Shown in pieces: positions 2,917 through 57,397 of a stretch of 64,000 nucleotides of DNA. This stretch comes from Candidatus Saccharimonadota bacterium. Its GTDB lineage: Bacteria; Patescibacteriota; Saccharimonadia; Saccharimonadales; AWTP1-31. Where the stretch lies: NCBI GenBank assembly GCA_052034955.1, contig JBPOHZ010000015.1:26998-90997 (forward strand). Reading direction: 5' to 3'. The notes under the pieces are model-generated. The model did no database searches. It was not told the DNA's origin and was given only the letters and a program-made list of their open reading frames with translations. The position numbers and the translations under genes are program-made. The stretch's first letter is position 1, and each line of letters opens with the position of its first letter.

Positions 2917-4029
2917 TTAACCCCTCGCCTTAGATGCTAGATAACTTTCTCGAAGTTTTGGGTCTACCAGCCACGGGGCATCTGGTCTCACCCCAGCAGT
3001 TTCACAAGCTTGCTTCCATGTATCCGGGTCTAGGCTTCCAGAATGAGCATCAATGAATCGACCAAGCTCAACCATCCTCGAGCTATGTGAGCCATTGCCA
3101 ATTCCACCAATTGGCTCCTGAACGTAACCGATATGCTTAGGGTCTATGGTTTCAACCTCACCCTGCAAGGGGTGCTCGGTAGTCAGCCAGATGTCAGGAT
3201 ATTTTGGGTATACTTCAGCTAATATGGTTGCAAACTCTTCAGGTTCCCACGTATATAGATCGCAGCTATCGTAGTCATGCGCCTCCGTCTTGGTGAGCAT
3301 GGATAATTTCCTTTCTGCCGCCATAGCATAAACTTCTTCAATAAATAACTGTGCGTGTTCACTTTTCTCGGGTGTTGATAGATCAAGAGACAAATAAAAT
3401 TTATGCCGGTCAAATGGCCGTTCCACTACAAGGTCTGCGACCTCAGACCCTGTTTCCCATGCTTGAGAAAAGCCATTTTTGCCAGGTATCACCTTGCCGT
3501 CGTGATTTGCCCTACGATAACGATTGGTGAATAAAGCTCTTGGTTTCAGATTGTTACTATCCAAGCCACCTTGTTGTGAACCGCCAAAAGCAGACGAGAA
3601 TCCAATTCTCTTGGCGGATTCAACTAATGTGCTGCGTGATAACTTTGTTAGTAGAGCTTCTGGTGAGCCCTCGCCCGTCATGCTGGTACCTTCAAGTAAC
3701 GAGGGTCCAGATGGTTCAGGTGAAGTCACTTCACCAGATTTTTCTGTGCGAATCATCCTACTTACAACCCTAGAAGGACGACTTTCGGATACTCCCACTG
3801 TGCTCGTACCGCGGCCCATACTATTACGCACGCGTGAAACTGGTGCGACAGGTGTTTCATCAACAGTATCAAGTTCTGCAGTTGCATCAACCGGAACTTC
3901 ACCAATAACTTCTGCTTCCTCCGGGCTAATAGTCTCTACACTTGCTTCTGATGTAGCTTCACTCACGCTGCGACGCATGCTACTGCGCACGCGTGAAACT
4001 GGTTCTGTGGATGTTGTCTTTGGTTCCAT
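2917..4029 (-). CDS. hypothetical protein with an N-terminal Ser/Thr/Arg-rich disordered region carrying an internal tandem repeat (PVSRVRxSMxR)
   Basis: Long ORF with a non-low-complexity C-terminal half. The DNA repeat cgcacgcgtgaaactggt occurs twice (about 3828 and 3985). Lies next to the replication-relaxation gene and the transposase. Confidence 0.5.
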   Translation of the reverse strand: MEPKTTSTEPVSRVRSSMRRSVSEATSEASVETISPEEAEVIGEVPVDATAELDTVDETPVAPVSRVRNSMGRGTSTVGVSESRPSRVVSRMIRTEKSGEVTSPEPSGPSLLEGTSMTGEGSPEALLTKLSRSTLVESAKRIGFSSAFGGSQQGGLDSNNLKPRALFTNRYRRANHDGKVIPGKNGFSQAWETGSEVADLVVERPFDRHKFYLSLDLSTPEKSEHAQLFIEEVYAMAAERKLSMLTKTEAHDYDSCDLYTWEPEEFATILAEVYPKYPDIWLTTEHPLQGEVETIDPKHIGYVQEPIGGIGNGSHSSRMVELGRFIDAHSGSLDPDTWKQACETAGVRPDAPWLVDPKLRESYLASKARG

Positions 4030-4183: not shown

Positions 4184-5023
4184 ACTCTGGAAAATTAGTT
4201 CTCTTAATGTCGTCTTTTCTGCCCCATTATCCGTATCAACCTTAACCCAGATCTTATCAGCAGGCCTTGTGGCTGTTTCAAGCCGTTGTCTGGTCGTCGT
4301 AGCAAACACTAGCTCATCATCCCAAGCTTCATCGAGAATACGTTGCATCTGTCGCTTTAACTTCTTCTGGGTTCGTTCGTCATCACAGATAGCCAATATT
4401 ACTGGGTATGGCTCATTTTCCTGCCAGTCGCCGCTGTCCTTGAAGTTAACGTAGTTTCTGGTTTTCCTGACACTGACAAAGAACGGTTTCGTACCGTCCC
4501 AGATATCTACAAAGTAATGTTTGGCAGATGTCTCGCCCTTGCCGGGTATTTCAATATGCAGATCTGGTGTCCAACTTGGGTAGTAATCCAACTGTGCCAT
4601 ATAGCTTTTGGGAAGTAGGTGGAGTTTTTTGCTGTCACCGTATATATCTCGGAGTCTTTGAGCTGTTTCTGTTACAGCAATGCAGTGCTTGAGAAAATCA
4701 TCCGAGACGGTTTTGTTCTTGTACAGGCTCTTAGTTGCCCAGGTGTTGGTTGAATTAGGATTGGCTTTTTCAAGTGCTCGTGCGCCTTTCGGGGTAATGA
4801 AGTATTCTGCCGATCTACCAGCTAGCTTGTAGGACTTATCGTAACGTTTACCAATGAGTCCTTGGACTTCCAGTATCTGCAGTTTGTTTTGGATAGCTTT
4901 AGGGTTGGTTTTATCAAATGATCTGGCAAGCTGTCTGCTTGTACAAAATCGATACCAATACAGCAAATGTAGTGTTCTAATCTGCTGTTTATTCAACGAT
5001 CTACGATACTTCACTTCATTCAT
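4166..5023 (-). CDS. replication-relaxation (Replic_Relax) family protein
   Basis: N-terminal winged-helix segment (LTLRDL...QL) resembling plasmid replication-relaxation proteins: QQIRTLHLLYWYRFCTSRQLARSF...LEVQGLI. Confidence 0.55.
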   Translation of the reverse strand: MNEVKYRRSLNKQQIRTLHLLYWYRFCTSRQLARSFDKTNPKAIQNKLQILEVQGLIGKRYDKSYKLAGRSAEYFITPKGARALEKANPNSTNTWATKSLYKNKTVSDDFLKHCIAVTETAQRLRDIYGDSKKLHLLPKSYMAQLDYYPSWTPDLHIEIPGKGETSAKHYFVDIWDGTKPFFVSVRKTRNYVNFKDSGDWQENEPYPVILAICDDERTQKKLKRQMQRILDEAWDDELVFATTTRQRLETATRPADKIWVKVDTDNGAEKTTLRELIFQSGSGDS

Positions 5024-5029
5024 ATAGCT

Positions 5030-6300
5030 TCTTATTAATGCGCACTAAACTAACACTAGATAAGCTCATCAAGTCATCAAAACCATACTCAACACCACAA
5101 ACCACACAACTCATAAAACCAATACTTACATATCTACTCATAATCCTACATCACTCTAATCATCTGTTCTCCTCTATATTTATATAGAAAGAGAGGGAGA
5201 AAAGGAAGAAGGAAAATATAGGGGCAGTCCAAGAAATATAAGTTGGGTATCGGTGGGTAAGTTTAGAACTTCTTGCTAACGAGGTTGCTATAGGTTAATC
5301 GCTTGCCGTTTAGGTGGTTAAACCAGTCTTCAAAACGTTCGCCGTCAGTTAGCTCACGAGTATTCCAGCGGTAGCTATATTCATCGCAGTATCGCTGCAA
5401 GTGCTTAGCGCTAACATGGTGGTAAATGCCGTTAATGCCACGCTTGAGATGTGACCAAAACGACTCAGCTGTATTGGTACTGGCCATACCATTCACAAAT
5501 TCCTTAACGCCGTGATTGACACTTTCATGCTTAAAGCCGATCTTAGGCAAGGTTCGGTAGGGCATATGCTCGTCCGTGTAGATTGTGGCGTTAACGTCTA
5601 TGTGTTTACGGGCTAGGGTCATAAGAGTATGGCTGCCAGTATCTTTTGTGGCAACAGCGTGGAGCTGCCCACCACGTTCGACCATGCCCACGACTGGGGC
5701 TTTACTATTTTTGCTTCCGAAGCCTTGTGCGCCTTTGCCAGTAATAGCTTTTAGTTTCTTGTGAGCGTGTTTGTTACTGTCTTTGCCGCCAATGTAAGCT
5801 TCATCCATCTCAACTTCGCCGTTGAGCAGTTCAAAGCTGTCATTTTCAAAGACGTAGCGGATACGTTGAAGCATGAACCAAGCAGTCTTTTGGGTGACGC
5901 CAATATATTTACTAAGCTGAATTGAAGAAATGCCTTTCTTGTAACTACCACACAGATAGATGGCTAAAAACCACTTCTGTAGTGGTACGGGGCTATCCTC
6001 GAAGACACTGCGAGTACGAACGGTAAAGGTATTACGGCAACTGGCACACTTGATACGACCGCTAGCTAGGTTGTAGGTCTTAACATTAATCTCACCACAT
6101 TTCGGACAGGTTACACCGTCTGCCCAGCGAGCTTTATACAGGAAGTTCTGGCATTGTTTCTCAGTACCGAACTTCTGATAGAATTGGATAAGATTAAATG
6201 ACTCCATAAATCCATTCTAACAGAGGTAAATGGTAACGTCAAGTATATAATTGCCTATTTAATTAACAAAAGCAAGGAATATACACTATCAGGCACTTAA
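5030..6300 (-). mobile_element. putative IS1595-family insertion sequence (ends not resolved)
   Basis: Single transposase ORF flanked by AT-rich, compositionally odd non-coding DNA. Terminal inverted repeats could not be identified by eye. Confidence 0.4.
5263..6207 (-). CDS. IS1595-family transposase (ISXO2-like)
   Basis: N-terminal transposase zinc ribbon (CPKCG...CASCR) followed by a DDE_Tnp_IS1595-like domain (MDEAYIGG..., YTDEH..., ESFWS). Confidence 0.8.
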   Translation of the reverse strand: MESFNLIQFYQKFGTEKQCQNFLYKARWADGVTCPKCGEINVKTYNLASGRIKCASCRNTFTVRTRSVFEDSPVPLQKWFLAIYLCGSYKKGISSIQLSKYIGVTQKTAWFMLQRIRYVFENDSFELLNGEVEMDEAYIGGKDSNKHAHKKLKAITGKGAQGFGSKNSKAPVVGMVERGGQLHAVATKDTGSHTLMTLARKHIDVNATIYTDEHMPYRTLPKIGFKHESVNHGVKEFVNGMASTNTAESFWSHLKRGINGIYHHVSAKHLQRYCDEYSYRWNTRELTDGERFEDWFNHLNGKRLTYSNLVSKKF

Positions 6301-7473: not shown

Positions 7474-8055
7474 ATGATTAAGGCTATAATTTTTGACTGC
7501 TTCGGTGTGATTACCGAGAATCGCTGGGATACCTTTCGAGCAGCAGTTAATACTGATGTACGAGATCAAGTAAATGATATGCATACGGCATTCGATAGAG
7601 GGCTAGTTAGCTACCCAGACTTTAGCCGCACTTTACATGAGCTCACAGGCATGAGCCAAGACGAGATTGACGCCGTGTTCATGAACAGGGACGGATACAG
7701 CAAGAACATAGAACTTTTGGCAGATATAAAAGAACTTTCTGCTAAGTACAAGGTAAGTATTCTTAGTAATGTCGGAAGCAACTGGATCAGAGAAAAGTTC
7801 TTGACTACCGAGGAGATTAATCTGTTCAGCGACTTTGTACTCTCTTATGAAACTAAACTAGGAAAACCGGACCCGGCAATTTACCAACTGGCTTTTGAGC
7901 GACTAGGTGTTGACTCGTCTGAAGCTGTTTTTATCGACGATAATCCAAGCTACTGTCAGGTGGCCAAAAGCATGGGTGCAAAGACCATAGCGTATACAAA
8001 TTTTGCTCAGTATAAACAAGAGCTAGATACCATTCTAGCCAATTCTAATAACTAA
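7474..8055 (+). CDS. HAD-superfamily hydrolase (subfamily IA-like)
   Basis: Motif I (IIFDCFGVI), a K in motif III (LGKPDP), motif IV (FIDDN). Confidence 0.7.
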   Translation: MIKAIIFDCFGVITENRWDTFRAAVNTDVRDQVNDMHTAFDRGLVSYPDFSRTLHELTGMSQDEIDAVFMNRDGYSKNIELLADIKELSAKYKVSILSNVGSNWIREKFLTTEEINLFSDFVLSYETKLGKPDPAIYQLAFERLGVDSSEAVFIDDNPSYCQVAKSMGAKTIAYTNFAQYKQELDTILANSNN

Positions 8056-8274
8056 CTTCTTATCTGTTGCTAGGTGACTTTGCAGCTCAAAGAGACTCAT
8101 CCTTAGGGCTCCCGCTAAGGAGGCTCCGGGAACAGTAATTACTATCTGAGATTTGCCAATAGAAACCGAGACCAATGAATCAAAGTGCTCTTTAATGTAA
8201 TCTTTTATTACTTTTACTTCAGGCGGTTCAGCAGGAAGTCTTCTGGATAGTATGTCGCTAAGTTGATCGGCCAT
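8035..8274 (-). CDS. small DUF721/DciA-like protein
   Basis: Pattern GKSQIVITVPGASLAGALRMSLFELQSHL resembles the DUF721 core (V.V.SSAWAQEL.F). Confidence 0.35.
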   Translation of the reverse strand: MADQLSDILSRRLPAEPPEVKVIKDYIKEHFDSLVSVSIGKSQIVITVPGASLAGALRMSLFELQSHLATDKKLVIRIG

Positions 8275-8347
8275 GACAACATTATACTTTGTTGTAGAGT
8301 CCGTCGAGCATCTAGTTCTCTGATGTTCAGTCTGTCATACTAGCTGT

Positions 8348-9220
8348 ATGCCAGAACTACCAGAGGTCGAGACAGTCCGTTTGGGTTTGCAAAGATTATT
8401 ACCAGGAAAGGTTATTAAAGACGCTACATCCGATTTTGAGCGTTCTTTTCCCAATGCGCCGCAGGATATCAGGCAGTTCCTTTTAGGGTCCGAAATCTTG
8501 GAGGTTAAACGGCGCGCAAAAGTGCTTTTAATAGAACTCAGCAGCAAATACTCGTTAGTGATTCATCTAAAGATGACTGGACAGCTTGTTTTTGTCGGTG
8601 CAGAAAGATTTGGTGCAGGGCACCCTAACGATTCATTAGTAGGACAGCTGCCAGATAAATCCACGAGGGTAGTATTTACTTTCCAAGATGGCTCCAAGCT
8701 GTTTTTTAATGATCAGCGAAAATTTGGCTGGGTGCGACTGATCCCTACGGTAGAAGTTCCAGAAATAAACTTCATGAAGAAGCTCGGCCCCGAGCCGCTA
8801 GAGGCAGATTTTACAAATAAACTATTCAAAGAACGTTTATCAAGACGCAAAAAAAGCGGAATTAAAGCAGTATTATTAGACCAAACAGTGCTAGCAGGAA
8901 TCGGTAACATTTATGCCGATGAAAGTCTTTGGGCGGCCAAGATTCATCCCGAGACTAAAGTGATGGATATTTCAGACGCAAAAGTACAAGCACTACATAA
9001 AGAAATAATTGCAGTTCTTAGGTTAAGTATCGAAAAGGGCGGATCGTCAGATAGAAATTATGTAAATGCCGAAGGCAAAAAAGGCAGCTATATAAGCTTT
9101 GCCAAAGTATTCCGAAAAGAAGGTTCGGCTTGTCAGCGTTGTGGTCGAGAAATTACCAAAACAAGAGTGGCTGGCCGGGGCACCCATATCTGTTTATTCT
9201 GCCAGAAAGCACCAAAATGA
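8348..9220 (+). CDS. mutM: formamidopyrimidine-DNA glycosylase
   Basis: N-terminal MPELPEVETVR (the Fpg catalytic Pro2/Glu3 region) and a C-terminal CxxC...CxxC zinc finger. Confidence 0.9.
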   Translation: MPELPEVETVRLGLQRLLPGKVIKDATSDFERSFPNAPQDIRQFLLGSEILEVKRRAKVLLIELSSKYSLVIHLKMTGQLVFVGAERFGAGHPNDSLVGQLPDKSTRVVFTFQDGSKLFFNDQRKFGWVRLIPTVEVPEINFMKKLGPEPLEADFTNKLFKERLSRRKKSGIKAVLLDQTVLAGIGNIYADESLWAAKIHPETKVMDISDAKVQALHKEIIAVLRLSIEKGGSSDRNYVNAEGKKGSYISFAKVFRKEGSACQRCGREITKTRVAGRGTHICLFCQKAPK

Positions 9221-10134
9221 TTATAACTTTAACCGGCAGTAACGCTTATCTTCTTCAGTCCGAGCTTCGTAGAATAACAAACCAATTTATATCTACTTCT
9301 GGCGATATGGGCCTAGAGCGAGTAGATGCAGGGCAGGTGGAATATACGCGGATTATCGAGGTTGTGCATGCGCTGCCATTTCTAGCCGACAAGAGACTTG
9401 TGATTATCGATGGCCCAGCTAACAATAAGCAGTTAGCAGAGAATATTGCAGATTTACTTGTAGCAATAGATGACCTGACGGATGTTGTATTTACCGAACC
9501 CAAGTTCGACAAACGTAGTTTGCTGTATAAGACTCTTAACAAAAAAACAGATTACAAAGAGTTCAACGAATTAGATGACTCTAAAATGGCAAACTGGTTA
9601 AGTCAGTATGCCAAAGAACAAGATGGCCAACTAAGCTCATCCGATGCCCGATATTTAATACAAAGAGTGGGTCTCAACCAGCTTAGGCTAAAGAACGAAT
9701 TGGATAAATTGGTTAGCTTTAATAAAAATGTAGATCGCAACGGCATTAATCTTCTAGTTGCCCCTAACCCCGACAGCAAGGTCTTTGACTTGTTGGATGC
9801 TGCGCTGTCGGGACAACCAAAGAAAGCAATGGAACTATACGCCGAACAAAGACTACAGAAAGTTGAGCCGCAAGCTATTCTGGCGCTATTTGCATGGCAA
9901 CTCCATGTACTGGCTGTCGTTAAATCAGCAGGCAATAGACAGAGTGATGCGGTCACTAAAGACTCCAAACTCAACCCATTCGTGATTCGTAAGTCTGCCG
10001 GTCTTGCTCGACGATTATCTGCCGAAGAGTTAAAATCGTTGATCCGCAGAACACTCGAGTTAGACATTAAGCTCAAAACAGAATCTATAGACGCAGATAC
10101 AGCAATGCAAAACTTGCTTGTAGGCATTGCCTAA
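9217..10134 (+). CDS. holA: DNA polymerase III delta subunit
   Basis: The ATG at 9217 overlaps the mutM stop (ATGA). Delta-like N-terminus MIITLTGSNAYLLQSEL and a C-terminal helical domain. Confidence 0.7.
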   Translation: MIITLTGSNAYLLQSELRRITNQFISTSGDMGLERVDAGQVEYTRIIEVVHALPFLADKRLVIIDGPANNKQLAENIADLLVAIDDLTDVVFTEPKFDKRSLLYKTLNKKTDYKEFNELDDSKMANWLSQYAKEQDGQLSSSDARYLIQRVGLNQLRLKNELDKLVSFNKNVDRNGINLLVAPNPDSKVFDLLDAALSGQPKKAMELYAEQRLQKVEPQAILALFAWQLHVLAVVKSAGNRQSDAVTKDSKLNPFVIRKSAGLARRLSAEELKSLIRRTLELDIKLKTESIDADTAMQNLLVGIA

Positions 10135-42034: not shown

Positions 42035-43831
42035 TTGAGTGTTCTATCAGCAACAGTTCAAAAGCAGGTCGAAGAGGACTTTATAGACCAGGGTTTAATT
42101 ACCCCAGAACAACTTGAAGAGCTGCATAAGAAAGCCGAGTCGCTCAACAGCCCGATCCTCAGTCTATTGGTCAGCGAAGGGGTAGTCACCGACGAAGATC
42201 TAACTAGGACGACTGCCAAGGTTGCAAATGTTCCATATGTTAATCTAAGCACTGCCAAAATTGACGCCGATGTATTGGCGTTATTGTCACAGGAGATAGC
42301 CGAAAGATATATGGCCGTACCATTAGGCGAGATGCAACACCGTTTAGTGGTTGCCATGCTGGACGCAGATAACGTTCAGGCTGCTGACTTTTTAGCCAAC
42401 AAAATTGGTCGACCACTCAGAGTTTACGCGGCCAGCGAGGCCGGAATTAGGAGAATTCTAAAACAATATTCTGAACGTCTCGACAATAAAATGGTCGATC
42501 TTAAGGCGACTGCCGAGGCTGCGGCCACGCAGGATACGGCCGATAAAAAAGCCGAAGACGACAAGAATGCCTCGGTTCAGACTATTGTTCAGGACTCGCC
42601 GATCAGCAAGGCACTGTCTACTATTCTAGAATACGCCGCCAAGAACAGGGCAAGTGATATTCACATTGAACCTCTCGAGAAAGTACTCAAAATCAGGGCC
42701 CGAATCGATGGTGTGCTTCGTGAAATTATGAAGTTACCCAAGAGCACCGAAGCACCGCTGGTATCTCGTATTAAGATTCTGTCCAACCTTAAGATCGACG
42801 AACACCGTATACCACAGGACGGAGGTTTCGCCATTATGGTCGATAACCATGCTATCGATCTTCGTATCGCCATCAGTCCAGTTGTCTGGGGTGAGCAGGT
42901 GGTTATTCGTTTGCTGGACAAAAGCGGTACCAGCCTGAACCTAGACGACATGGGTTATCATGGACGAGCCCTAAGGACCATCAGGGAAGCTCTAAAGCAA
43001 CCAAACGGAATGATTCTAACCAGTGGACCCACTGGTTCGGGTAAGTCTACATCGCTCTACGCTCTTCTGCAGGAGATTAAAGACGACACCATTAACATCG
43101 TTACCCTGGAAGATCCTGTTGAATACAAAATGCAGGGTATCAACCAGATTCAGGTTAATGCCGAAGTTGGACTAACATTCGCTAACGGGCTAAGGTCTAT
43201 CCTGCGTCAAGACCCCGATGTTGTGATGGTTGGGGAAATTCGTGATAAAGAAACTGCCCAGCTGGCTGTTCAGGCTGCTCTAACTGGACACTTAGTGTTT
43301 AGCACTCTTCACACCAACTCGGCCGCCGGAATTCTGCCTCGTTTGTTAGATATGGGTATTGAGCCCTTCCTTATCGCCAGTACCGTCCACACCGTTATTG
43401 GTCAGCGATTAGTGCGCAGAACATCCGACCAAAAGACTACTTATCAGTCCGACAAGGCCGAAACAGCTGCCATTCAAGCAACACTCGGCGCTTTATTGCC
43501 AGCCACGGCTGCAGATCAGGCCAAGGCCGCCCAAGATTTAGGCTACGATAACTTGCCACTGGCTACCCAAAACGCTTATACTTTATTCAAGGGCGTAGAT
43601 GCTCCCGAAACACCCGGTGGGTATAAGGGGCGGATGGGATTATACGAAGTCTTCGAGATTAGTGAAGCCATCCAGGATCTTATCCTCAAGCGGTCCACAA
43701 GCGCCGAAATACAGAAGGCTGCTAGGGCCGAGGGCATGGTAACCATGCGCGAAGACGGATATTTAAAAGCATTAACAGGCCAAACAACTATATCCGAGAT
43801 CAATCGGGTAGCAGCAACAGATAGCGCATAA
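42035..43831 (+). CDS. pilB: type IV pilus extension ATPase PilB/GspE
   Basis: GspII_E N-domain, Walker A GPTGSGKST, and a tetracysteine-like region. Confidence 0.9.
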   Translation: MSVLSATVQKQVEEDFIDQGLITPEQLEELHKKAESLNSPILSLLVSEGVVTDEDLTRTTAKVANVPYVNLSTAKIDADVLALLSQEIAERYMAVPLGEMQHRLVVAMLDADNVQAADFLANKIGRPLRVYAASEAGIRRILKQYSERLDNKMVDLKATAEAAATQDTADKKAEDDKNASVQTIVQDSPISKALSTILEYAAKNRASDIHIEPLEKVLKIRARIDGVLREIMKLPKSTEAPLVSRIKILSNLKIDEHRIPQDGGFAIMVDNHAIDLRIAISPVVWGEQVVIRLLDKSGTSLNLDDMGYHGRALRTIREALKQPNGMILTSGPTGSGKSTSLYALLQEIKDDTINIVTLEDPVEYKMQGINQIQVNAEVGLTFANGLRSILRQDPDVVMVGEIRDKETAQLAVQAALTGHLVFSTLHTNSAAGILPRLLDMGIEPFLIASTVHTVIGQRLVRRTSDQKTTYQSDKAETAAIQATLGALLPATAADQAKAAQDLGYDNLPLATQNAYTLFKGVDAPETPGGYKGRMGLYEVFEISEAIQDLILKRSTSAEIQKAARAEGMVTMREDGYLKALTGQTTISEINRVAATDSA

Positions 43832-43859: not shown

Positions 43860-44921
43860 ATGCAACCACGAATCGAGATTTTACTAGAAGAGGTCATCAA
43901 GAAGAAAGCTTCCGACCTTCACCTTCAAGTTGGCTTGCCACCTATGCTTCGTGTTGACGGCGCACTTGCACCAGTAAACGGCACCGAACCCCTCACCGAA
44001 GAAACTGTTGAATCTTTGGTGTTTGCAATTCTAGACGAAGATCAAAAACAGATTTTATTAAAAGACAAAGAATTCGACTTTTCATTTGCCTTTGGTGACC
44101 TGGGTCGTTTCCGTGTTAACGCTTTCCATGAACGAGGCAACTTAGCCGCCGCACTTCGTTTAATTCCTAACGAGATTCTTAGCATCGAACAGCTTGGCTT
44201 GCCGCCAATAGTAAATAAGTTTGCCGATTACCCTCGAGGATTAGTTCTGGTTACCGGGCCAACCGGATCAGGTAAATCAACTTCATTGGCAGCTATGGTT
44301 AATAAGATCAACCACGAACGATCAACTCATATCGTAACCATCGAAGATCCAATCGAATTTACCCATAAGTCAATCAAGTCGGTCATCGTTCAGAGGGAAG
44401 TCCACTACGATACATATTCTTTCTCGGCTGCGCTTCGATCAAGCCTTCGTCAAGATCCTGATGTGGTACTCATCGGAGAAATGCGTGACCTAGAAACTAT
44501 TAGCTCAGCCATAACCATCGCCGAAACCGGACACTTAGTTTTTGCTACTCTTCACACTAACTCGGCAGCACAGAGCATTGACCGTATGATAGATGTTTTT
44601 CCGCCACACCAACAGCCACAGATTCGATCCCAGTTAGCTAACATCTTGATGGCTATCTGTTCACAGCGTCTCATTCCAGCTATTGGTGGTGGACGTATGG
44701 CTGCAGCCGAGATTCTGGTAGCAACACCAGCTGTGCGTAACATAATCCGCGAAGGTAAAAGCCACCAGCTAGAAGCCGTTATTCAGACCGGTGCTGAGTT
44801 CGGAATGCAGTCTATGGACAAAACGCTGGTATCTCTTATCCATAACGGAACCATAACTTACGAAGAAGCTCGTAACTATGCCGTTGACCTCGACGAACTA
44901 GATAGGTTAATGAGAAGCTAA
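43860..44921 (+). CDS. pilT: twitching motility/retraction ATPase PilT
   Basis: Approximately 350 aa; GPTGSGKST Walker A; the AIRNLIRE motif appears here as AVRNIIREGK. Confidence 0.9.
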   Translation: MQPRIEILLEEVIKKKASDLHLQVGLPPMLRVDGALAPVNGTEPLTEETVESLVFAILDEDQKQILLKDKEFDFSFAFGDLGRFRVNAFHERGNLAAALRLIPNEILSIEQLGLPPIVNKFADYPRGLVLVTGPTGSGKSTSLAAMVNKINHERSTHIVTIEDPIEFTHKSIKSVIVQREVHYDTYSFSAALRSSLRQDPDVVLIGEMRDLETISSAITIAETGHLVFATLHTNSAAQSIDRMIDVFPPHQQPQIRSQLANILMAICSQRLIPAIGGGRMAAAEILVATPAVRNIIREGKSHQLEAVIQTGAEFGMQSMDKTLVSLIHNGTITYEEARNYAVDLDELDRLMRS

Positions 44922-46643: not shown

Positions 46644-46663
46644 TAGATAGCAATTAGGTCACA

Positions 46664-46692
46664 AAAAATAGCCCCCTCGGGGGCTATTTTTT
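46664..46692 (+). terminator. rho-independent terminator after the pilin gene
   Basis: AAAATAGCCCCC-tcg-GGGGGCTATTTTTT perfect hairpin plus a T-run. Confidence 0.8.
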
Positions 46693-50460: not shown

Positions 50461-51441
50461 CTAGTCAGATTTATTATGGAACTTCTCGTGGACCGATTTT
50501 AGGTGCGGGTCGGTGACGTGAGTGTATATCTGGGTCGTGGCAATATTGCTGTGTCCCAACATGCTTTGGACGCTCCTGATGTCGGCACCATTCATAAGTA
50601 GGTCAGTGGCGAAGCTGTGGCGTAGGGTGTGCGGCGACACATGTTTGGTTATACCAGCCAGTAGGGCAGTTTTTGCAACCATTCTTTGGACGCTGCGGGC
50701 TGTTAGCCTATGAAAGTTGCCGCTGGTGTCTATTTTTTTCTGACCACTGTAACGAACGAATAATGGCTTAACATTATCTTGCCTCTGACCCAGGTATTTA
50801 GTCAGCCAGTCTGCCGCTTCGGGGCTAATAAAGATCGGCCGGTCTTTTTGGCCCTTACCTCTGACAGTGAACTCTCGTCGTTTTAAGTTTATATGATCTC
50901 TATCTAATCCCACTAGCTCCGATACACGCAGGCCACTGCTAAAAAGAAGCTCTAGTATTGCTCTGTCTCGTAAGCCCATGATATTGCTGATATTACAGGC
51001 TGCAAGAAGCCGTTCTACCTCCTCTGGAGTTAAAAAGGTGACCTGTTTGCGAGTAGTTCTGGCCAATTCTACTTTATCGGCACTCAGGGCAGCTATATCT
51101 CGCTTGGCGCAATATTTAAGAAAGCTACGTAGGGCAATTAGGTGATAGTTCTGAGTTGTCTTTTGGAGCTCGTCGCTCGTATTGGTCCCCAAACGGTTCA
51201 GCCATAGACGCCATTTTCTTACCAGCTCCGGAGTTACGTCGGAGACTTGTATCTCTCCAGCGTAATCAGTTAAACGAGTTAGGTAGTGATCGTAGTTAGC
51301 AATGGTCTTTTGGGAACGATTCTGTTCAATCTCTAGGTACTCTAGGAAATCGGTTTTTACTTTACTAAGTAGCATAGACATTACTATATATAGGCTGCTC
51401 CTGGTAGTCGAGTAGATACGCTCATGACAAACGCCTCCCAA
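50461..51441 (-). CDS. tyrosine site-specific recombinase, XerC/XerD family
   Basis: C-terminal R...HxLRH...Y catalytic region HTLRHSFATDLL...GHSNIATTQIYTHV. Confidence 0.8.
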   Translation of the reverse strand: MGGVCHERIYSTTRSSLYIVMSMLLSKVKTDFLEYLEIEQNRSQKTIANYDHYLTRLTDYAGEIQVSDVTPELVRKWRLWLNRLGTNTSDELQKTTQNYHLIALRSFLKYCAKRDIAALSADKVELARTTRKQVTFLTPEEVERLLAACNISNIMGLRDRAILELLFSSGLRVSELVGLDRDHINLKRREFTVRGKGQKDRPIFISPEAADWLTKYLGQRQDNVKPLFVRYSGQKKIDTSGNFHRLTARSVQRMVAKTALLAGITKHVSPHTLRHSFATDLLMNGADIRSVQSMLGHSNIATTQIYTHVTDPHLKSVHEKFHNKSD

Positions 51442-52730: not shown

Positions 52731-53788
52731 AGAAATACGTACAAAAACTCAAGGACCGCAAAGAAGCCAAAGCTAAGAGGTCAGAAGTTGCCCTAGTAGA
52801 GGCATCCAACCCAAAGATAACCAACGAGACTGTGGCCGAGCACCGCGAAGAAGTACTGTCCAGTGCCCGTAAGTACATTTATCCATTGCAGCATTCTAAG
52901 CATAAGATAGTGGTTATTACTACGACCTTATTTATCGTTACATTGGTAGCATTTGTTAGTTACACTACACTGTCGCTATATAAACTAAAGTCTAACTCAT
53001 CATTTCTGTATGGTGTTACTAAGGTCTTTCCGTTTCCGGTGGCAAAAGCCGGTGGTAATTTTGTAGCCTACGAAAATTACCTGTTTGAGCTACGCCATTA
53101 TATTCACTACTATCGTAACCAACAAAAGTTAGACTTTGATTCAGAGTCAGGGCGACAACAACTTGCCGAATTCAAGAAGAGAGCTCTAGATAAAGTGGTC
53201 AACGATGCCTATGTAAAGCAACTTGCTAAGCAAAATAACGTTACTGTCAGTAATCAAGAGGTACAAGCCGAGATAAAGATAGTGCGCGACCAGAACAGGC
53301 TCGGCGGTAGTGACAAAGTGTTTGAAGATGTACTAAAAGAGTACTGGGGTTGGTCTGTTACGGACTTCGAAAGAAGCCTTCAGCAACAACTCTTAGCCCA
53401 AAAACTGCTACCAATATTGGATAAAGAGCTAGTTGCTAAGGCTCAGGCCGCCAAATCTGAGCTAGATAACAAAGCCGACTTTGCTAAGGTTGCTCAAAAA
53501 TACTCGGACGATACAATAACCAAAGATAACGGTGGAGAGATCGACGGCGAGATAGACCGTTCCAATAGAGAAATAGCAGCTCAAACTGTCTCGACATTGT
53601 TTAGTCTTAAGCCAGGGCAGTACTCTACGGTCATTAATACCGGATACAGCCTAGAGATAGTAAAGAGTCTAGATAAGCAGGGCGACAAGGCTCGTGCCGC
53701 GCATATTGTATTCAACTTCAAAGACATAGACGCCTATCTAAATGACTTCAAAGATCAGAAAAAAGCTAGTCTATATATCAAGCTCTAA
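52727..53788 (+). CDS. membrane-anchored PpiC/parvulin-type peptidyl-prolyl isomerase (PrsA/SurA-like)
   Basis: N-terminal TM helix, a chaperone-like helical domain, and a parvulin signature around FAKVAQKYSDD...GG. Confidence 0.6.
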   Translation: MKKYVQKLKDRKEAKAKRSEVALVEASNPKITNETVAEHREEVLSSARKYIYPLQHSKHKIVVITTTLFIVTLVAFVSYTTLSLYKLKSNSSFLYGVTKVFPFPVAKAGGNFVAYENYLFELRHYIHYYRNQQKLDFDSESGRQQLAEFKKRALDKVVNDAYVKQLAKQNNVTVSNQEVQAEIKIVRDQNRLGGSDKVFEDVLKEYWGWSVTDFERSLQQQLLAQKLLPILDKELVAKAQAAKSELDNKADFAKVAQKYSDDTITKDNGGEIDGEIDRSNREIAAQTVSTLFSLKPGQYSTVINTGYSLEIVKSLDKQGDKARAAHIVFNFKDIDAYLNDFKDQKKASLYIKL

Positions 53789-53808: not shown

Positions 53809-54498
53809 TTATTGTTCAAAACTCATCCCGAAGTCGGGATTAATACCATCGGACTCTATAATTTCTTCAGGAAGTTCACGGACTTGATCAAGCATCTCAA
53901 CGTTGATATTTTTAACATAACTTCTGTCTTTTTCCTGCGAAGTAATCCTTAAATATTCATATAGATTTTCGTTTGTTAAGGGCACATACCCATCCTCAAC
54001 AAGCTGCACGGCAAGGGGGTTGTCGTTTGAAACACCCGAACTAAAGTTTGGTGATCCTGCCCACTGCAGTGTTCCGTCTTCACCTAGGAATTGCCCGAAA
54101 GTAACGTCAGCCAAGAATTTTTCACCGTCAATGGTTAGGAGGTTAAATCCATGCTGGAATGCTTCTGGGTATCTATTGCCCGAAGCCAGGGAATGTAAAT
54201 CCAGAAGTTGAACCTTCTTGCTAACTGCATCAAAACCATCACGTTGACTTTGGTCATTTAATACATATCCAAGGATATCTGGCCCTAAGTTACAATCTCC
54301 CCACATTCTGGTGGATCTGCTATCGGAATTACCTCTGGCAACCCAGCCTCTTTCAAATCGCTCGATCACATTTTCAAGTCTTGCGCTAGGTGTTGGTTCC
54401 TGTTCTAGGCCGTCAATCATTGCTCTGGCAAACATCTTGGCATGTTCTTCCGGTAATCTAGCTGTAGGGTCGGTAATATAGGACTGTTGCTCGGTCAT
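53809..54498 (-). CDS. hypothetical protein
   Basis: ORF; translationally coupled (4-nt overlap) with the upstream small membrane protein. Confidence 0.45.
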   Translation of the reverse strand: MTEQQSYITDPTARLPEEHAKMFARAMIDGLEQEPTPSARLENVIERFERGWVARGNSDSRSTRMWGDCNLGPDILGYVLNDQSQRDGFDAVSKKVQLLDLHSLASGNRYPEAFQHGFNLLTIDGEKFLADVTFGQFLGEDGTLQWAGSPNFSSGVSNDNPLAVQLVEDGYVPLTNENLYEYLRITSQEKDRSYVKNINVEMLDQVRELPEEIIESDGINPDFGMSFEQ

Positions 54499-54731
54499 TT
54501 CTGGCTACTTTTTCGGTTAGCGATAAAAGTGATCACTGTTGCTGCAGCTATCCAGTTAGGCACTATGAATAGAACTGCTTCACCGGGCGATGATGTTGTA
54601 TTCATGCCAAGTATCATTGCAAACACTACGTACCCTACAAATATTGCGTAGACAACATAGCCCGCCTTACTAGAGGGGAGGAAACTGCCACGAACCGGCC
54701 TAAACCACGTAACTTTTGTTTTTCTTGCCAT
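54495..54731 (-). CDS. small membrane protein
   Basis: Two TM helices. Confidence 0.4.
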   Translation of the reverse strand: MARKTKVTWFRPVRGSFLPSSKAGYVVYAIFVGYVVFAMILGMNTTSSPGEAVLFIVPNWIAAATVITFIANRKSSQK

Positions 54732-54891
54732 GCCTAAATTATAGCATTAGTAAATTGGCGGGCTTGGAGGCTGTTTTCTGAAAGCTTTAAAAATCTGGCT
54801 TAGGCTTTGGTTCGTGCCATACCGTCGAATGAACGTATGAGGTAGCTGCGGGGAGTGGTACTCCAACCGTGCCGTACTTTAGAGATTTGGA

Positions 54892-55407
54892 CTATACGCT
54901 CACAAGAGATTTGCTTAGTACAACGTCTTCGCCCGCACCCAGCCCGTAAAGGTCTGCTACTTCCTGGATCTCGTACCCATGATTGATTAAAAATGCGACC
55001 ATGTCGGTGTTCGTAACTTTTGTGTCGACCAGAACAGTTTCAACTCCAGGGAAGTCGGCCATTGCTTCAATCTCGGTGTTTCTAAGTAAAAAGCTTCCAA
55101 CCAAGCGGCCCTGGCCTTCTGGCACTACTGATAAGTTGCGGATCTCTAGCACATTTGATCTTTCAGGGTGCCGCTGAAAGATTGCCGCACCAACTGGTAC
55201 GCCATTGTACTGAGCGAGTAGTGCGCGCTTCACCTCATCCTCTAATTGCCCTATGGTCTTATCTATCCATTCGCTGTGAGCAGGGTAGTCAGCTTCTGTT
55301 GGGATCCAGAGTCTAGGACTACGTAGTAAGGTGACGACTTCATCGATCTCGCATGAGGATAACTCATTAGTGAATCTAAAGTCTGCCATTGAAACAAAAA
55401 ATACCAT
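54892..55407 (-). CDS. GNAT-family N-acetyltransferase-like protein (true start probably the Met at 55389)
   Basis: IRNLSVVPEGQGRLVGSFLL resembles the acetyl-CoA-binding Q/RxxGxG/A motif. The annotated first Met lies inside the upstream palindrome. Confidence 0.5.
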   Translation of the reverse strand: MVFFVSMADFRFTNELSSCEIDEVVTLLRSPRLWIPTEADYPAHSEWIDKTIGQLEDEVKRALLAQYNGVPVGAAIFQRHPERSNVLEIRNLSVVPEGQGRLVGSFLLRNTEIEAMADFPGVETVLVDTKVTNTDMVAFLINHGYEIQEVADLYGLGAGEDVVLSKSLVSV

Positions 55408-55447
55408 AAAAATGGTATTTTGTATACTTTGCGGGCCGTAACTTTAG
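55392..55447 (-). repeat. cassette-junction repeat R1 (10-4-10 palindrome plus tRNA-3'-end-like segment)
   Basis: AAAATACCAT-AAAA-ATGGTATTTT followed by TTTGCGGGCCGTAACTTTAG; near-identical to R2. Confidence 0.8.
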
Positions 55448-55920
55448 CTCACAAGCTTTTGTGTCAGTGTGACAGGGACAGGTTCTACTACATTACGCCT
55501 AATACTAAGACAAGCGGCACTTCCTACTGTAAAATTCCTGCAAATGTATGGTCTATCTTCGTATTCATCACAAAATCCGTCAGTAGTTAGGAATGCACAA
55601 TCACCATTCATCTTATATAGTCCTTGCCCTGGTCGCATTGTAAGTGCGGATTCAGCCACACCAAGCCAGAACGCTTTCTCTAAGTCATTTTCAGCATCCA
55701 CTGACAATTGCTTTATACCGTCAGTATTCTTTGACCAGCAAAAGAGCTCTTCTTCATCAGGCTCAATAGTAGGCTCAAGAACCAGTGTTTGCATAGGCGG
55801 CAGGATTCGTAGTAATTCGGCTCCAGCCTCCCTTAATCTGATTGCTTCATCAGCGTAAAGAGCAAGTCTTACGTTTGAACAGCAGGCACCCATACATCTT
55901 TCGGGATTAAACTCAGTCAT
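55444..55920 (-). CDS. YkgJ/UPF0153-like Cys-cluster protein (putative Zn/Fe-binding)
   Basis: N-terminal C-x-x-x-CC (CMGACC) plus a distal DCAFL...GFC...YIC cysteine set. Confidence 0.5.
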   Translation of the reverse strand: MTEFNPERCMGACCSNVRLALYADEAIRLREAGAELLRILPPMQTLVLEPTIEPDEEELFCWSKNTDGIKQLSVDAENDLEKAFWLGVAESALTMRPGQGLYKMNGDCAFLTTDGFCDEYEDRPYICRNFTVGSAACLSIRRNVVEPVPVTLTQKLVS

Positions 55921-55987
55921 AAAGCAAAAAATACCATAAAAATGGTATTTTGTCTACTTTGCGGGCCGTAACTTTAGTTATCTGGAA
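55921..55987 (-). repeat. cassette-junction repeat R2
   Basis: Differs from R1 at only about 3 positions over approximately 55 bp. Confidence 0.8.
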
Positions 55988-55993
55988 CAATTT

Positions 55994-56512
55994 TTATTGC
56001 TCGGCAGGTGTTGCCGAGAGCTGTTGCATGAGCTCTACCGTTGCGGCGAGTTCAGGGGTGGGACCAGCGATAGGTTTTGTTACATAGTGGGTTTCTGCGA
56101 AGAAACCGCTTTCTGTCTCTGTATCTGGCTGAGTAGGTAAGGATTCTGGGTTGATTGATAGAGAAGTTTTACCCTCATAAGTATAGCTATGGATTACACC
56201 AGGAGGCACGACTCCATGGAGAAAAGTAACAGGTGCAGGAGATCGTCTAAAAGCAATGCCCCTAAAGTAGCGTGGGAGAGCGCCAGAGTTTATCGCATCA
56301 GTTGCCGCTTCGCTTATTTCGTCGGGCGTTAGACCTCTTTGCTCAGCTTCTGTTGCAAAATTGTTCATTTGTTGTCGTGCTTCATCTAGAAGAGAGTAGG
56401 CCGTATTATGAAGAGTGGGTGTATATTCAGTTGGTGAATTAGGCTTAGCATCCAACGGTTCTGCTATTGGTTCGGTAGCAGGTGCGGGGTTTCTATTCTT
56501 TCGAAGGAACAT
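55994..56512 (-). CDS. hypothetical protein
   Basis: ORF; the start codon is immediately preceded by R3. Confidence 0.45.
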   Translation of the reverse strand: MFLRKNRNPAPATEPIAEPLDAKPNSPTEYTPTLHNTAYSLLDEARQQMNNFATEAEQRGLTPDEISEAATDAINSGALPRYFRGIAFRRSPAPVTFLHGVVPPGVIHSYTYEGKTSLSINPESLPTQPDTETESGFFAETHYVTKPIAGPTPELAATVELMQQLSATPAEQ

Positions 56513-56566
56513 AAAAAAATATTACCATAAAAATAGTATTTTGTCTAGTGGCGGGCCCGACCGGAT
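56513..56566 (-). repeat. cassette-junction repeat R3, containing an exact 18-nt copy of the tRNA-Asp 3' end
   Basis: Degenerate palindrome ATTACCAT-AAAA-ATAGTAT followed by TGGCGGGCCCGACCGGAT (56549-56566), which is identical to 56719-56736. Confidence 0.8.
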
Positions 56567-56718
56567 AGCCACACATCTATGCCAGTGCTCGGAATAAATT
56601 CCTGCGCTCTGGCTTGATGACCGAACTGGCGATCTCATTCACTTCGTTCATGGATCGCCTCGTTTGTATCGTTGGGCAGCTATGAAAAAGAGCCATCACA
56701 TGGATGACTCATTTTCAC

Positions 56719-56796
56719 TGGCGGGCCCGACCGGATTCGAACCGGCGATCTCCTCCGTGACAGGGAGGCGTGTTAGGCCAGCTACACCACGGGCCC
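56719..56796 (-). tRNA. tRNA-Asp (anticodon GUC)
   Basis: Cloverleaf: acceptor GGGCCCG/CGGGCCC, anticodon loop CUGUCAC (identical to E. coli tRNA-Asp), T-loop TTCGAAT, encoded CCA. Confidence 0.85.
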
Positions 56797-56920
56797 GCAT
56801 CGATACTTAAAAGTAACAGATGATAGTCTAACAATTTAAGGTGTAAATAGCAAGAAATATAATTCTTAAATATTACTTAAATAATTGATTATATTGCTAT
56901 AGGTACATCATAATTTAACT

Positions 56921-57397
56921 ATGGTCACACTCAGAAAACTATTTCCTAACTGCTTGGTTTGTGATGCGATGTTACCCAGAAGGAGCTACAAGTATTGTTC
57001 AAATAAGTGTCAAGCAGACTTTCAGTACGAAAAATACATACATGATTGGAAGTGTGGCAAGGTATCAGGCCTGCAAGCAAGGTTGGGAATAGTCTCTCGG
57101 CATGTAAAACGTTATTTAAGGAGTAAATACCATAACAGATGTTGCATTTGTGGGTGGGCTGAGGTTAATATTGTTACACGTACTGTACCGCTGGTAGCAG
57201 ATCATATTGACGGTAATTGGCAAAACAACAAAGAAGCAAATCTAAGGCTTATTTGCCCTAATTGTGACTCGCTTTCGGCAACTTATGCGGCACTTAACAG
57301 GGGAAAGGGTAGAATAGGTCGAAGGGTTAGCAACAGGGTTAATGTTGCAAGAAGTAATGCAAACAAAGTTGCCGGGGTAACTCAGTTGGTAGAGTAG
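56921..57397 (+). CDS. HNH endonuclease-family protein
   Basis: Cys-rich N-terminus and the HNH core VADHIDGNWQNN...LICPNCD. The last approximately 9 codons read into the tRNA-Thr gene. Confidence 0.6.
   Translation: MVTLRKLFPNCLVCDAMLPRRSYKYCSNKCQADFQYEKYIHDWKCGKVSGLQARLGIVSRHVKRYLRSKYHNRCCICGWAEVNIVTRTVPLVADHIDGNWQNNKEANLRLICPNCDSLSATYAALNRGKGRIGRRVSNRVNVARSNANKVAGVTQLVE

Follow-up and report, generated by a model that had tools for sequence, protein, structure and literature searches.

A tRNA-Asp-anchored array of single-gene cassettes in Saccharibacteria, with features that point to serial insertion at the tRNA 3′ end

The places within tRNA genes at which foreign DNA integrates have reportedly been sorted into sublocation classes by Williams in 2002. 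Genomic islands and prophages that use such sites leave a regenerated tRNA gene and a displaced fragment of its 3′ end (Islander database, PMC4383910). In the tycheposons of Prochlorococcus, serial integration at one tRNA pushes older elements inward and scatters partial tRNAs; a minority of tycheposons use large serine recombinases, and some resemble phage-inducible chromosomal islands (PICIs) (bioRxiv 10.1101/2020.12.28.424599). Here we describe a stretch of 64,000 nucleotides (the window; positions 26,998 to 90,997 of contig JBPOHZ010000015.1), which we assign from its genes to a chromosome of Saccharibacteria, members of the candidate phyla radiation (CPR). In it, the last 18 nucleotides of an intact tRNA-Asp gene recur at the far end of a 170-nt unit that has no open reading frame (ORF), beyond which lies an array of small genes on the tRNA's strand. 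We consider it likely that the tRNA-Asp gene is an attachment-site (attB) hotspot in Saccharibacteria, at which cassette units have been inserted serially and site-specifically. The window was compared with related loci and contigs, labelled by L-numbers (L004, L113, L126 and so on; L126 and L130 are one contig).

The locus shares with the islands of the Islander type an intact tRNA, a same-orientation repeat of the tRNA 3′ end that includes CCA, unoccupied sites in relatives and a content between the repeats that varies. It differs from them in that the 152 nt between the window's repeats hold neither a gene nor an integrase and the units are single genes, and in that the integrase at the site in L130 is a large serine recombinase, whereas tyrosine integrases are usual. 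The closest analogue we can name is serial integration at the island tRNAs of Prochlorococcus, since here too several partial tRNA copies are spread across a variable, tRNA-proximal island (junctions J1-J4b in the window; also L089, L123 and L126) and the host genome is small. Tycheposons, however, comprise several genes and bring an integrase and a replication module of their own, which in our material occur in the L130 island only; most units of this locus consist of a single promoter plus ORF without a mobility gene, have a common conserved end motif of about 30 nt, and include a recurrent gene-less type. These three traits bring its layout nearer to that of an integron.

Like chromosomal integrons, the locus has small cassettes, most of them ORFans, arrayed in one direction from a fixed primary site, each ending in a motif that resembles a recombination site, as well as ORF-less cassettes and a content that varies between close relatives. 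Unlike integrons, it has no IntI, each cassette has its own promoter (-35 and -10 with TG extension) in place of a common Pc, and its primary site is a tRNA 3′ end; the canonical attC core (GTTRRRY), judged by eye, is not apparent in the junction motifs (GTTCCAGA..CTAAAGTTACGGCCCGCCA, GTTCGGAAATCCGACTCGATGCCCCGCCA). Cis-mobilizable elements (CIMEs) are kilobase-long units flanked by attachment (att) sites, derived by deletion from integrative and conjugative elements, which have no recombinase and are mobilised by a related integrative element. The units described here are likewise bounded by att-like repeats, have no recombinase gene and would depend on an enzyme acting in trans, but they measure 0.17-1.4 kb and have a seemingly regular, recurrent format. 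The gene set of a PICI-like satellite (integrase, replication and small terminase) is present in the L130 island by three modest profile matches, and the window holds nothing of the kind. Prophage counts for Saccharibacteria have been published (PMC10746230), and our literature search found no description of a tRNA-Asp cassette locus. The kind of event, tRNA-targeted integration, is known (PMC4383910), but the format, tRNA-anchored arrays of single-gene cassettes in CPR bacteria, appears to be new.

The 18-mer reads TGGCGGGCCCGACCGGAT on the plus strand, at 56549-56566 and 56719-56736, and ATCCGGTCGGGCCCGCCA on the minus strand, at 56736-56719 and 56566-56549. The two copies agree at 18 of 18 positions in the same orientation, are spaced 170 nt start to start with 152 nt between them, and are the only ones in the 64 kb when both strands are searched with up to three mismatches; no such match arose in 100 dinucleotide shuffles. 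The exact repeat of the tRNA-Asp end, CCA included, on which the original prediction was built is thus borne out, and in the window it is no widespread element. Within the tRNA it spans the last 2 nt of the T-loop, the 3′ strands of the T-stem and of the acceptor stem, the discriminator and the encoded CCA. Its length is exactly 18 nt: the preceding (5′) base is A in the tRNA and T in the copy, and the sequences diverge right after CCA (GTGAAAA... versus CTAGACA...). A further tRNA-like piece, GAGATCGCCAGTTCG (56622-56636, minus strand), matches tRNA positions 45-59 at 14 of 15 nucleotides, a score equalled in 3 of 2000 shuffles. Taken together, the two pieces make the downstream copy resemble the tRNA's 3′ third, interrupted at the T-loop by about 55 nt. 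Among the five tRNAs of the window, only tRNA-Asp, for which a promoter-like site was found at 56820-56847, has its 3′ end repeated. It would act as the primary insertion site of the array.

In comparison with relatives, the 170-nt unit is a discrete and recurrent ORF-less cassette; the 152 nt between its 18-mer and that of the tRNA contain no ORF. Five other lineages have the same unit after tRNA-Asp: L116, L010, L004, L006, whose unit diverges in its interior, and L122, where it is truncated. L126 to L128 have it within a long array, many kilobases from any tRNA; the L126 unit is preceded there by the end motif AGTTCCAGACGTCTTCCGCTATGGTCCGCCA (...GGTCCGCCA) of a 193-aa cassette, which aligns column for column with the tRNA end of other loci. 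Hence, in either context, the unit opens directly behind a ...CCGCCA and closes with a ...GCCCGCCA of its own. Its composition varies: the units of L010 and L122 have no acceptor part, that of L122 joins an L010-type terminator to a window-type core, and in L004 the tRNA-end repeat runs 12 nt beyond CCA, its copy then having a terminator of its own.

The terminator helix of the unit has 16 pairs with compensatory changes across five lineages, and in a consensus fold of five sequences it is the only part with good covariation support, that of the remainder being weak. The core is about 90% identical among the window, L116 and L122, with the consensus CGATACAAACGAGGCGATCCATGAACGAAGTGAATGAGATCGCC(N)GTTCG, after which come a lineage-specific insert and ATCCGGT...; an nhmmer profile of the core, run on 780 kb of related DNA, found copies in tRNA-Asp arrays alone. 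Of six types of insert at the T-loop position, four form a significant hairpin (those of L010, L004 and L089 fold too, the L116/L126 type does not), and a universal hairpin was therefore rejected. In Rfam 15, only the tRNA reaches threshold in 54600-57000, and no family matches over 56549-56684. A small ORF in the unit (MNEVNEIA...) was rejected because its start codon and frame are not kept in L010 and L004 and the substitutions are non-synonymous, and a primer-binding site was rejected because the L004 repeat extends 12 nt past CCA and no reverse transcriptase is present.

Related tRNA-Asp loci without the segment 56549-56718, proposed in the original prediction as a check, do exist: in L113, L121, L123/124, L118-120, L009 and L026 the unit is absent and other sequence stands directly after tRNA-Asp. 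In L113 the tRNA's CCA directly abuts AGTTGACTTACTACCATTTTTATGGTAGTATTTT, the palindrome-bearing type of promoter that stands after the window's second 18-mer, which is the arrangement expected without the 170 nt. Larger inserts are found as well, with 1.1 kb in L089, 1.9 kb in L123 and 7.5 kb (including a serine integrase) in L130/L126 between tRNA-Asp and a displaced tRNA fragment. The empty sites and these inserts support the reading of the repeat as an att-type trace of site-specific integration. Of the two forms that the original prediction gave to this reading, the boundary of a cassette array extending toward lower coordinates is the better one; a largely decayed element is not favoured, as discussed below.

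In the window the array runs from tRNA-Asp through the 170-nt ORF-less cassette, ORF172, ORF158, a GNAT gene and the pair ORF78 and ORF229 to a conserved SurA-like gene, which ends at 53788 (Table 1). All five ORFs of this interval (53809-56512) are on the tRNA's strand, and three of them are preceded by a 56-nt repeat (family D1) that contains the promoter. The promoters have TAGACA or TATACA, a spacer of 17 nt and TAATAT or TATTTT with a TG extension, and the cassette mRNAs are probably leaderless, the ATG lying 6-9 nt past the -10. The -35 of each of P1-P3 is directly preceded by the exact 18-mer (J1) or by ...CTAAAGTTACGGCCCGCAA (J2, J3); in other words, a cassette closes with a mimic, exact or degenerate, of the tRNA-Asp 3′ end (...GGCCCGCCA) that abuts the next promoter. 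J4b lies 12 nt upstream of the extended -10 (TGCTATAAT) that serves ORF78/ORF229, and its GCCCGCCA occurs three times in the 64 kb, either strand searched, each time in the array locus and on the tRNA's strand. ORF172 retrieved only itself among 5.8 billion proteins, and exact look-ups of ORF172 and of the neighbouring threonyl-tRNA synthetase (ThrRS) gave no entry.

Two further observations concern the array. A palindrome of 10+10 nt (AAAATACCAT TTTT ATGGTATTTT) occupies the -35/-10 spacer of P1-P3 and is also found in L113, L123 and L126; its right arm doubles as the extended -10, and it could serve a shared repressor as operator or belong to the recombination site. About 100 nt without an ORF (54764-54866, minus strand), between the end motif of the GNAT cassette and the GCCCGCCA before ORF78, may represent a second, decayed ORF-less unit.

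Table 1. Features of the tRNA-Asp locus, from the tRNA toward lower coordinates of the window.
Feature	Position	Strand	Basis or remark
tRNA-Asp (GTC), intact, encoded CCA	56719..56796	-	ARAGORN; Rfam tRNA 63.7 bits
18-mer copy 1 = tRNA-Asp positions 61-78	56719..56736	-	
170-nt ORF-less cassette, begins directly after tRNA CCA, ends in own tRNA 3′-end copy	56549..56718	-	
Intrinsic terminator at cassette 5′ end, stem 56690-56710 plus T-run	56685..56712	-	terminator scan
Conserved core with GGCGATC...GATCGCC inverted repeat; last 15 nt (56622-56636) mimic tRNA positions 45-59	56622..56683	-	
Lineage-specific 55-nt insert at T-loop position; two-tier hairpin in the window	56567..56621	-	DNA fold z = -3.3
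18-mer copy 2 (J1), att-like 3′ end of ORF-less cassette, abuts -35 of next cassette	56549..56566	-	
Promoter P1, TAGACA-17-TAATAT with TG; ATG 6 nt after -10	56519..56547	-	56-nt repeat family D1
ORF172, cassette gene, ORFan	55994..56512	-	no Pfam/NCBIfam match
Junction J2, end motif GTTCCAGATAACTAAAGTTACGGCCCGCAA, degenerate tRNA 3′-end mimic	55959..55988	-	
Promoter P2, TAGACA-17-TATTTT with TG, holds palindrome AAAATACCAT/ATGGTATTTT	55928..55956	-	
ORF158, cassette gene, CxxCxxCC, PF03692	55444..55920	-	Pfam
Junction J3, CTAAAGTTACGGCCCGCAA	55429..55447	-	
Promoter P3, TATACA-17-TATTTT, copy of P2	55398..55426	-	
GNAT acetyltransferase, cassette gene, 171 aa	54892..55407	-	Pfam PF00583, E = 1.5e-9
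Junction J4a, degenerate end motif AGTCCAAATCTCTAAAGTACGGCACGG	54867..54893	-	similarity to GTTCCAGA..CTAAAGTTACGG motif; weaker than J2, J3
Junction J4b (tentative: short), GCCCGCCA = tRNA's last 8 nt	54756..54763	-	
ORF78, distal variable gene	54495-54731	-	
ORF229, distal variable gene, last before SurA-like gene	53809-54498	-	

Comparable junctions are present in the arrays of other lineages. Motifs homologous to J2 end unrelated cassettes in L113, L123 and L126. Beyond the junction at its tRNA, the next one in L113 is ...GTTCCAGATCTCTAAGGTTAAGGCCCGCCA followed directly by AGTTGACTTATTAC, that is, the tRNA's last 9 nt plus the start of a promoter; L123 has ...GGGCCCGCCA joined to GATTGACTTACTACC about 1.0 kb from the tRNA and, at 1.9 kb, GTTCCAGACAGCTAAAGTTACGGCCCGCCA, then a 19-nt exact copy of the tRNA end, then a promoter. 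In L121 and L126 the motif is GTTCGGAAATC(C/A)GACTCGAT(G/A)CCCCGCCA, in which GTTCGAATCCGGTCGGGCCCGCCA can be recognised despite small insertions. In L089 a 47-nt, 98% identical copy of tRNA positions 13-59 stands 1.1 kb from the tRNA, with a 26-nt hairpin and ATCCGGTCGGG after it. The junction core plus a -35-like hexamer was found at 14 distinct sites on the tRNA strand in about 25 kb of arrays, and as about 4 scattered chance matches in the remaining ~550 kb of strand-sequence. We read the junctions as derivatives of the tRNA-Asp end. With regard to L089, its intact tRNA-Asp (4784-4861) has GAACCCGG in the T-loop and T-stem, and the displaced copy (5986-6070) keeps ATCCGG like the window's tRNA; this difference is expected if the present tRNA 3′ end came with the inserted element.

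The units themselves turn over. ORF158 has a single relative, 82% identical, which lies in the L126 array between different neighbours. At the nucleotide level the cassette is 83% homologous between the window and L126; the homology starts at CCCGC(A/C)A followed by AGTAGACAAAATACC, ends at G(T/C)TACGG(C/T)CCGC(A/C)A followed by AGTAT, and is thus bounded by junction cores, outside of which the sequences are unrelated. No cassette protein is common to the collected arrays, and only ORF158 had a relative in the large protein database. Turnover occurs within species: L116 and L118-120, and likewise L122 and L123/124, encode an identical glycosyltransferase (GT) protein next to different arrays, and they diverge from the first base past CCA.

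Public assemblies often break at this place. The 294-kb contig L115 ends 1 nt past the CCA of tRNA-Asp, and others stop within the tRNA cluster or a junction promoter (L110-L112, L123 end), which is consistent with strain heterogeneity in the sampled populations. A metagenome scan with AGATCGCCNNTTCGNTCN{22,52}ATCCGGT gave one true locus (L089) and 76 chance matches in GC-rich DNA, the pattern being too GC-biased.

One relative combines the same site with an integrase. In L130, a satellite-like island of 6.7 kb begins directly after the CCA of tRNA-Asp and ends in GTTCGGAAATCCGACTCGATGTCCCGCCA, a tRNA-end mimic, after which comes a cassette promoter; at 7.5 kb from the tRNA stands the 170-nt unit with its exact 18-mer. 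The island carries a 533-aa large serine recombinase with Resolvase and Recombinase domains (E = 3.5e-58 against phrog_95 "integrase"), convergent to tRNA-Asp, together with a TerS-like protein (Pfam Terminase_2, 27.3 bits, cutoff 26.1), a replication-initiator-like protein and other small genes. The two island ends are identical over CCCGCCA only. Serine recombinases use short cores, and CCCGCCA fits this habit. The recombinase ORF (7683-9284, plus strand) runs 42 nt into the 3′ end of tRNA-Asp (9243-9320, minus strand), so that its last 13 residues are tRNA-encoded and would differ in the excised form. In the L130 lineage, then, an integrase-bearing element does use the 3′ end of tRNA-Asp as its attachment site.

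The window itself has a tyrosine recombinase of the Xer type at 50461-51441 (minus strand), adjoining ndk and tRNA-Arg. It is syntenic in L010 (80% identity), L006, L113, L116, L121 and L122, and its distance from the array is about 5 kb throughout. Against the integron-integrase model, whose cutoff is 265 bits, it reaches 141, and it scores better as XerC/D/A; the only NCBIfam cutoff it passes is archaeal XerA / 'integron integrase'. Because of this synteny and these model scores we take it for a housekeeping gene, and it was rejected as an island integrase or IntI.

The other neighbours are housekeeping genes too (ThrRS, a SurA-like peptidyl-prolyl isomerase, NDK and a GT2 glycosyltransferase), and the relatives of ThrRS (best 71% identical) and of the GT (72-83%) are all in Saccharibacteria/Saccharimonadales metagenome-assembled genomes; the sequencing run SRR34217545 (Logan/SRA) contains the identical GT gene. 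A phage genome was rejected, given these neighbours and the lack of a close match in the phage collection. The order Xer-NDK-tRNA-Arg-ORF185-SurA ... tRNA-Asp/Thr/Gly-ORF118-GT-NrdR-ThrRS is conserved in L010, L006, L113, L116, L121 and L122; its only non-syntenic part is the interval from the SurA-like gene to tRNA-Asp, and the five array ORFs have no counterpart in these six loci.

Several side observations concern the surroundings. Between tRNA-Asp and tRNA-Thr, a 158-aa Cys-rich HNH-like ORF (56921-57397, plus strand; Pfam HNH_3 weak, below cutoff) shares 27 nt with the start of tRNA-Thr (57371). None of the syntenic loci has a homolog of it, and the 5′ side of tRNA-Asp is therefore variable too; L121 has an unrelated 304-aa ORF at this position. 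L121 also has, at 2998-3505 between ndk/tRNA-Arg and the ORF185 homolog, a BrnT/BrnA toxin-antitoxin pair that is absent in the window and the other loci. Farther away in the window, a 45-nt direct repeat (84%) at 43282-43326 and 44525-44569 (plus strand) lies within the adjacent ORFs 42035-43831 and 43860-44921, which are probably paralogous, and a perfect 14-nt inverted repeat (AAAAAATAGCCCCC / GGGGGCTATTTTTT) resembling a bidirectional terminator lies at 46663-46692 between two plus-strand ORFs.

To account for the array, we propose that incoming units would recombine within or just after the tRNA's last ~9 nt (...GGCCCGCCA), each unit carrying at its own 3′ end a mimic of the segment of tRNA-Asp from T-loop to CCA. 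Insertion would leave the tRNA intact, put the new unit right after CCA and bring its mimic against the promoter of the previous unit, and repeated Campbell-type rounds would build a one-directional array. The crossover would have to lie 3′ of the degenerate part of the mimics, since otherwise the tRNA would be damaged. The ORF-less cassette would then be the newest unit and the window's second 18-mer its att-like end; this cassette supplies the tRNA's terminator and re-creates the junction of tRNA end and promoter. Without it, the CCA of tRNA-Asp would adjoin CTAGACAAAATAC directly. The units would move by site-specific recombination with a recombinase provided in trans, for which an enzyme like the large serine recombinase of L130 is a candidate and the only specific lead. 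A bolder reading, which we hold only tentatively and would not yet prefer, is that the locus represents an undescribed, integron-like gene-capture system of Saccharibacteria: the tRNA-Asp 3′ end would be the primary site, at which a trans-acting recombinase, possibly a satellite-borne large serine recombinase, would insert, excise and exchange single genes with their own, probably leaderless promoters, tRNA-end mimics of about 30 nt would serve as its sites, and the ORF-less cassette would act as terminator and secondary docking site.

Several points weigh against serial site-specific insertion. The serine recombinase was found in one lineage only, tblastn detected no remnant of it in the window or the other loci, and the window's array (53809-56718) encodes no recombinase, the nearest being the syntenic Xer-type gene 5 kb off. 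No circular or excised form was found, and the viral collections gave no free form; scans of them with the 18-mer, the core of the unit, two junction motifs and the serine recombinase returned nothing, or one chance match within a coding region. Several junction copies are 8-9 nt long and were judged to be tRNA-derived by position and homology, not by individual statistics. Large serine recombinases, moreover, normally do not re-recombine attL-type sites, so that serial insertion by such an enzyme requires cassette starts that are alike.

The conserved promoters at the cassette starts could support homologous exchange too. In such a scheme, RecA-type recombination after DNA uptake would use patches of junction plus promoter to shuffle, duplicate or replace genes, and the duplicated 18-mer would be a by-product. 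Neighbouring cassettes have junction-plus-promoter modules of about 50-60 nt that are up to 96% identical and would offer suitable patches, P1-P3 being long and similar repeats, and both the mosaic unit of L122 and the predominance of arrays with no encoded recombinase fit well. We nevertheless regard it as unlikely, because the boundaries fall precisely after ...CCGCCA even where there are 7-9 nt of flanking homology (L130 island ends, L126 unit), the integrase-bearing element uses the same point, and Campbell-type insertion at a defined site characteristically leaves exact duplications of the tRNA end, here 18-47 nt long. If instead the 152 nt were the remainder of a larger integrative element like the serine-integrase satellite of L130, the unit of about 170 nt should not have the same start and end in six lineages, and once lie between two other cassettes, since independent deletions would not yield identical boundaries. 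Lineages with about 72% identity in their GT proteins also have cores that are about 90% conserved, and tblastn with the L130 recombinase revealed no remnant in the window or elsewhere. An integrase-bearing island does occupy the same site in L130, and decay of elements integrated at tRNA sites, with partial tRNAs left scattered, is well documented (bioRxiv 10.1101/2020.12.28.424599); internal deletion of such an element is, all the same, very unlikely here.

The 170-nt unit might also be chiefly the gene for a tRNA-like small RNA, with a T-arm-like element and a CCA-ended acceptor strand, in which case the repeat would be functional mimicry, for instance for processing or as a decoy. As RNA the whole unit folds better than shuffles (z = -3.5), its core is strongly conserved and specific to the locus, in L116 and L010 the GGCGATC/GATCGCC stem differs by transitions that produce G-U pairs, and the L004 copy is followed by its own terminator. 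What is missing is a match to any Rfam family, a promoter between the core and the terminator with which the unit begins, more than little covariation support past that terminator (five sequences) and a 5′ partner strand for the acceptor copy; in L010 and L122 there is no acceptor part at all. We give this explanation a small chance, and it would be compatible with serial insertion, since an ORF-less cassette can carry an RNA. That the repeat arose by chance or as an assembly artefact has a negligible probability: although the sequence is a metagenome-type assembly, none of the 100 shuffles matched, and the same architecture recurs in independent assemblies of other lineages from different samples, which makes an artefact unlikely.

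Saccharibacteria are epibionts with genomes under 1 Mb, and to our knowledge few routes by which they gain genes have been recognised. If the bolder reading as a gene-capture system is true, these tiny genomes would possess a dedicated, rapidly turning-over locus of ORFans. Being fixed in place, variable within species and composed of ORFans with their own promoters, it would be a major source of innovation at the level of strains, such as in host interaction or defence. tRNA-anchored arrays with tRNA-end mimics and no resident integrase would also sit between tRNA-targeted islands and integrons. On the practical side, the locus breaks metagenome assemblies and its tRNA fragments can confuse annotation, and the tRNA-Asp site would be a natural landing pad for genetic tools in this emerging model group.

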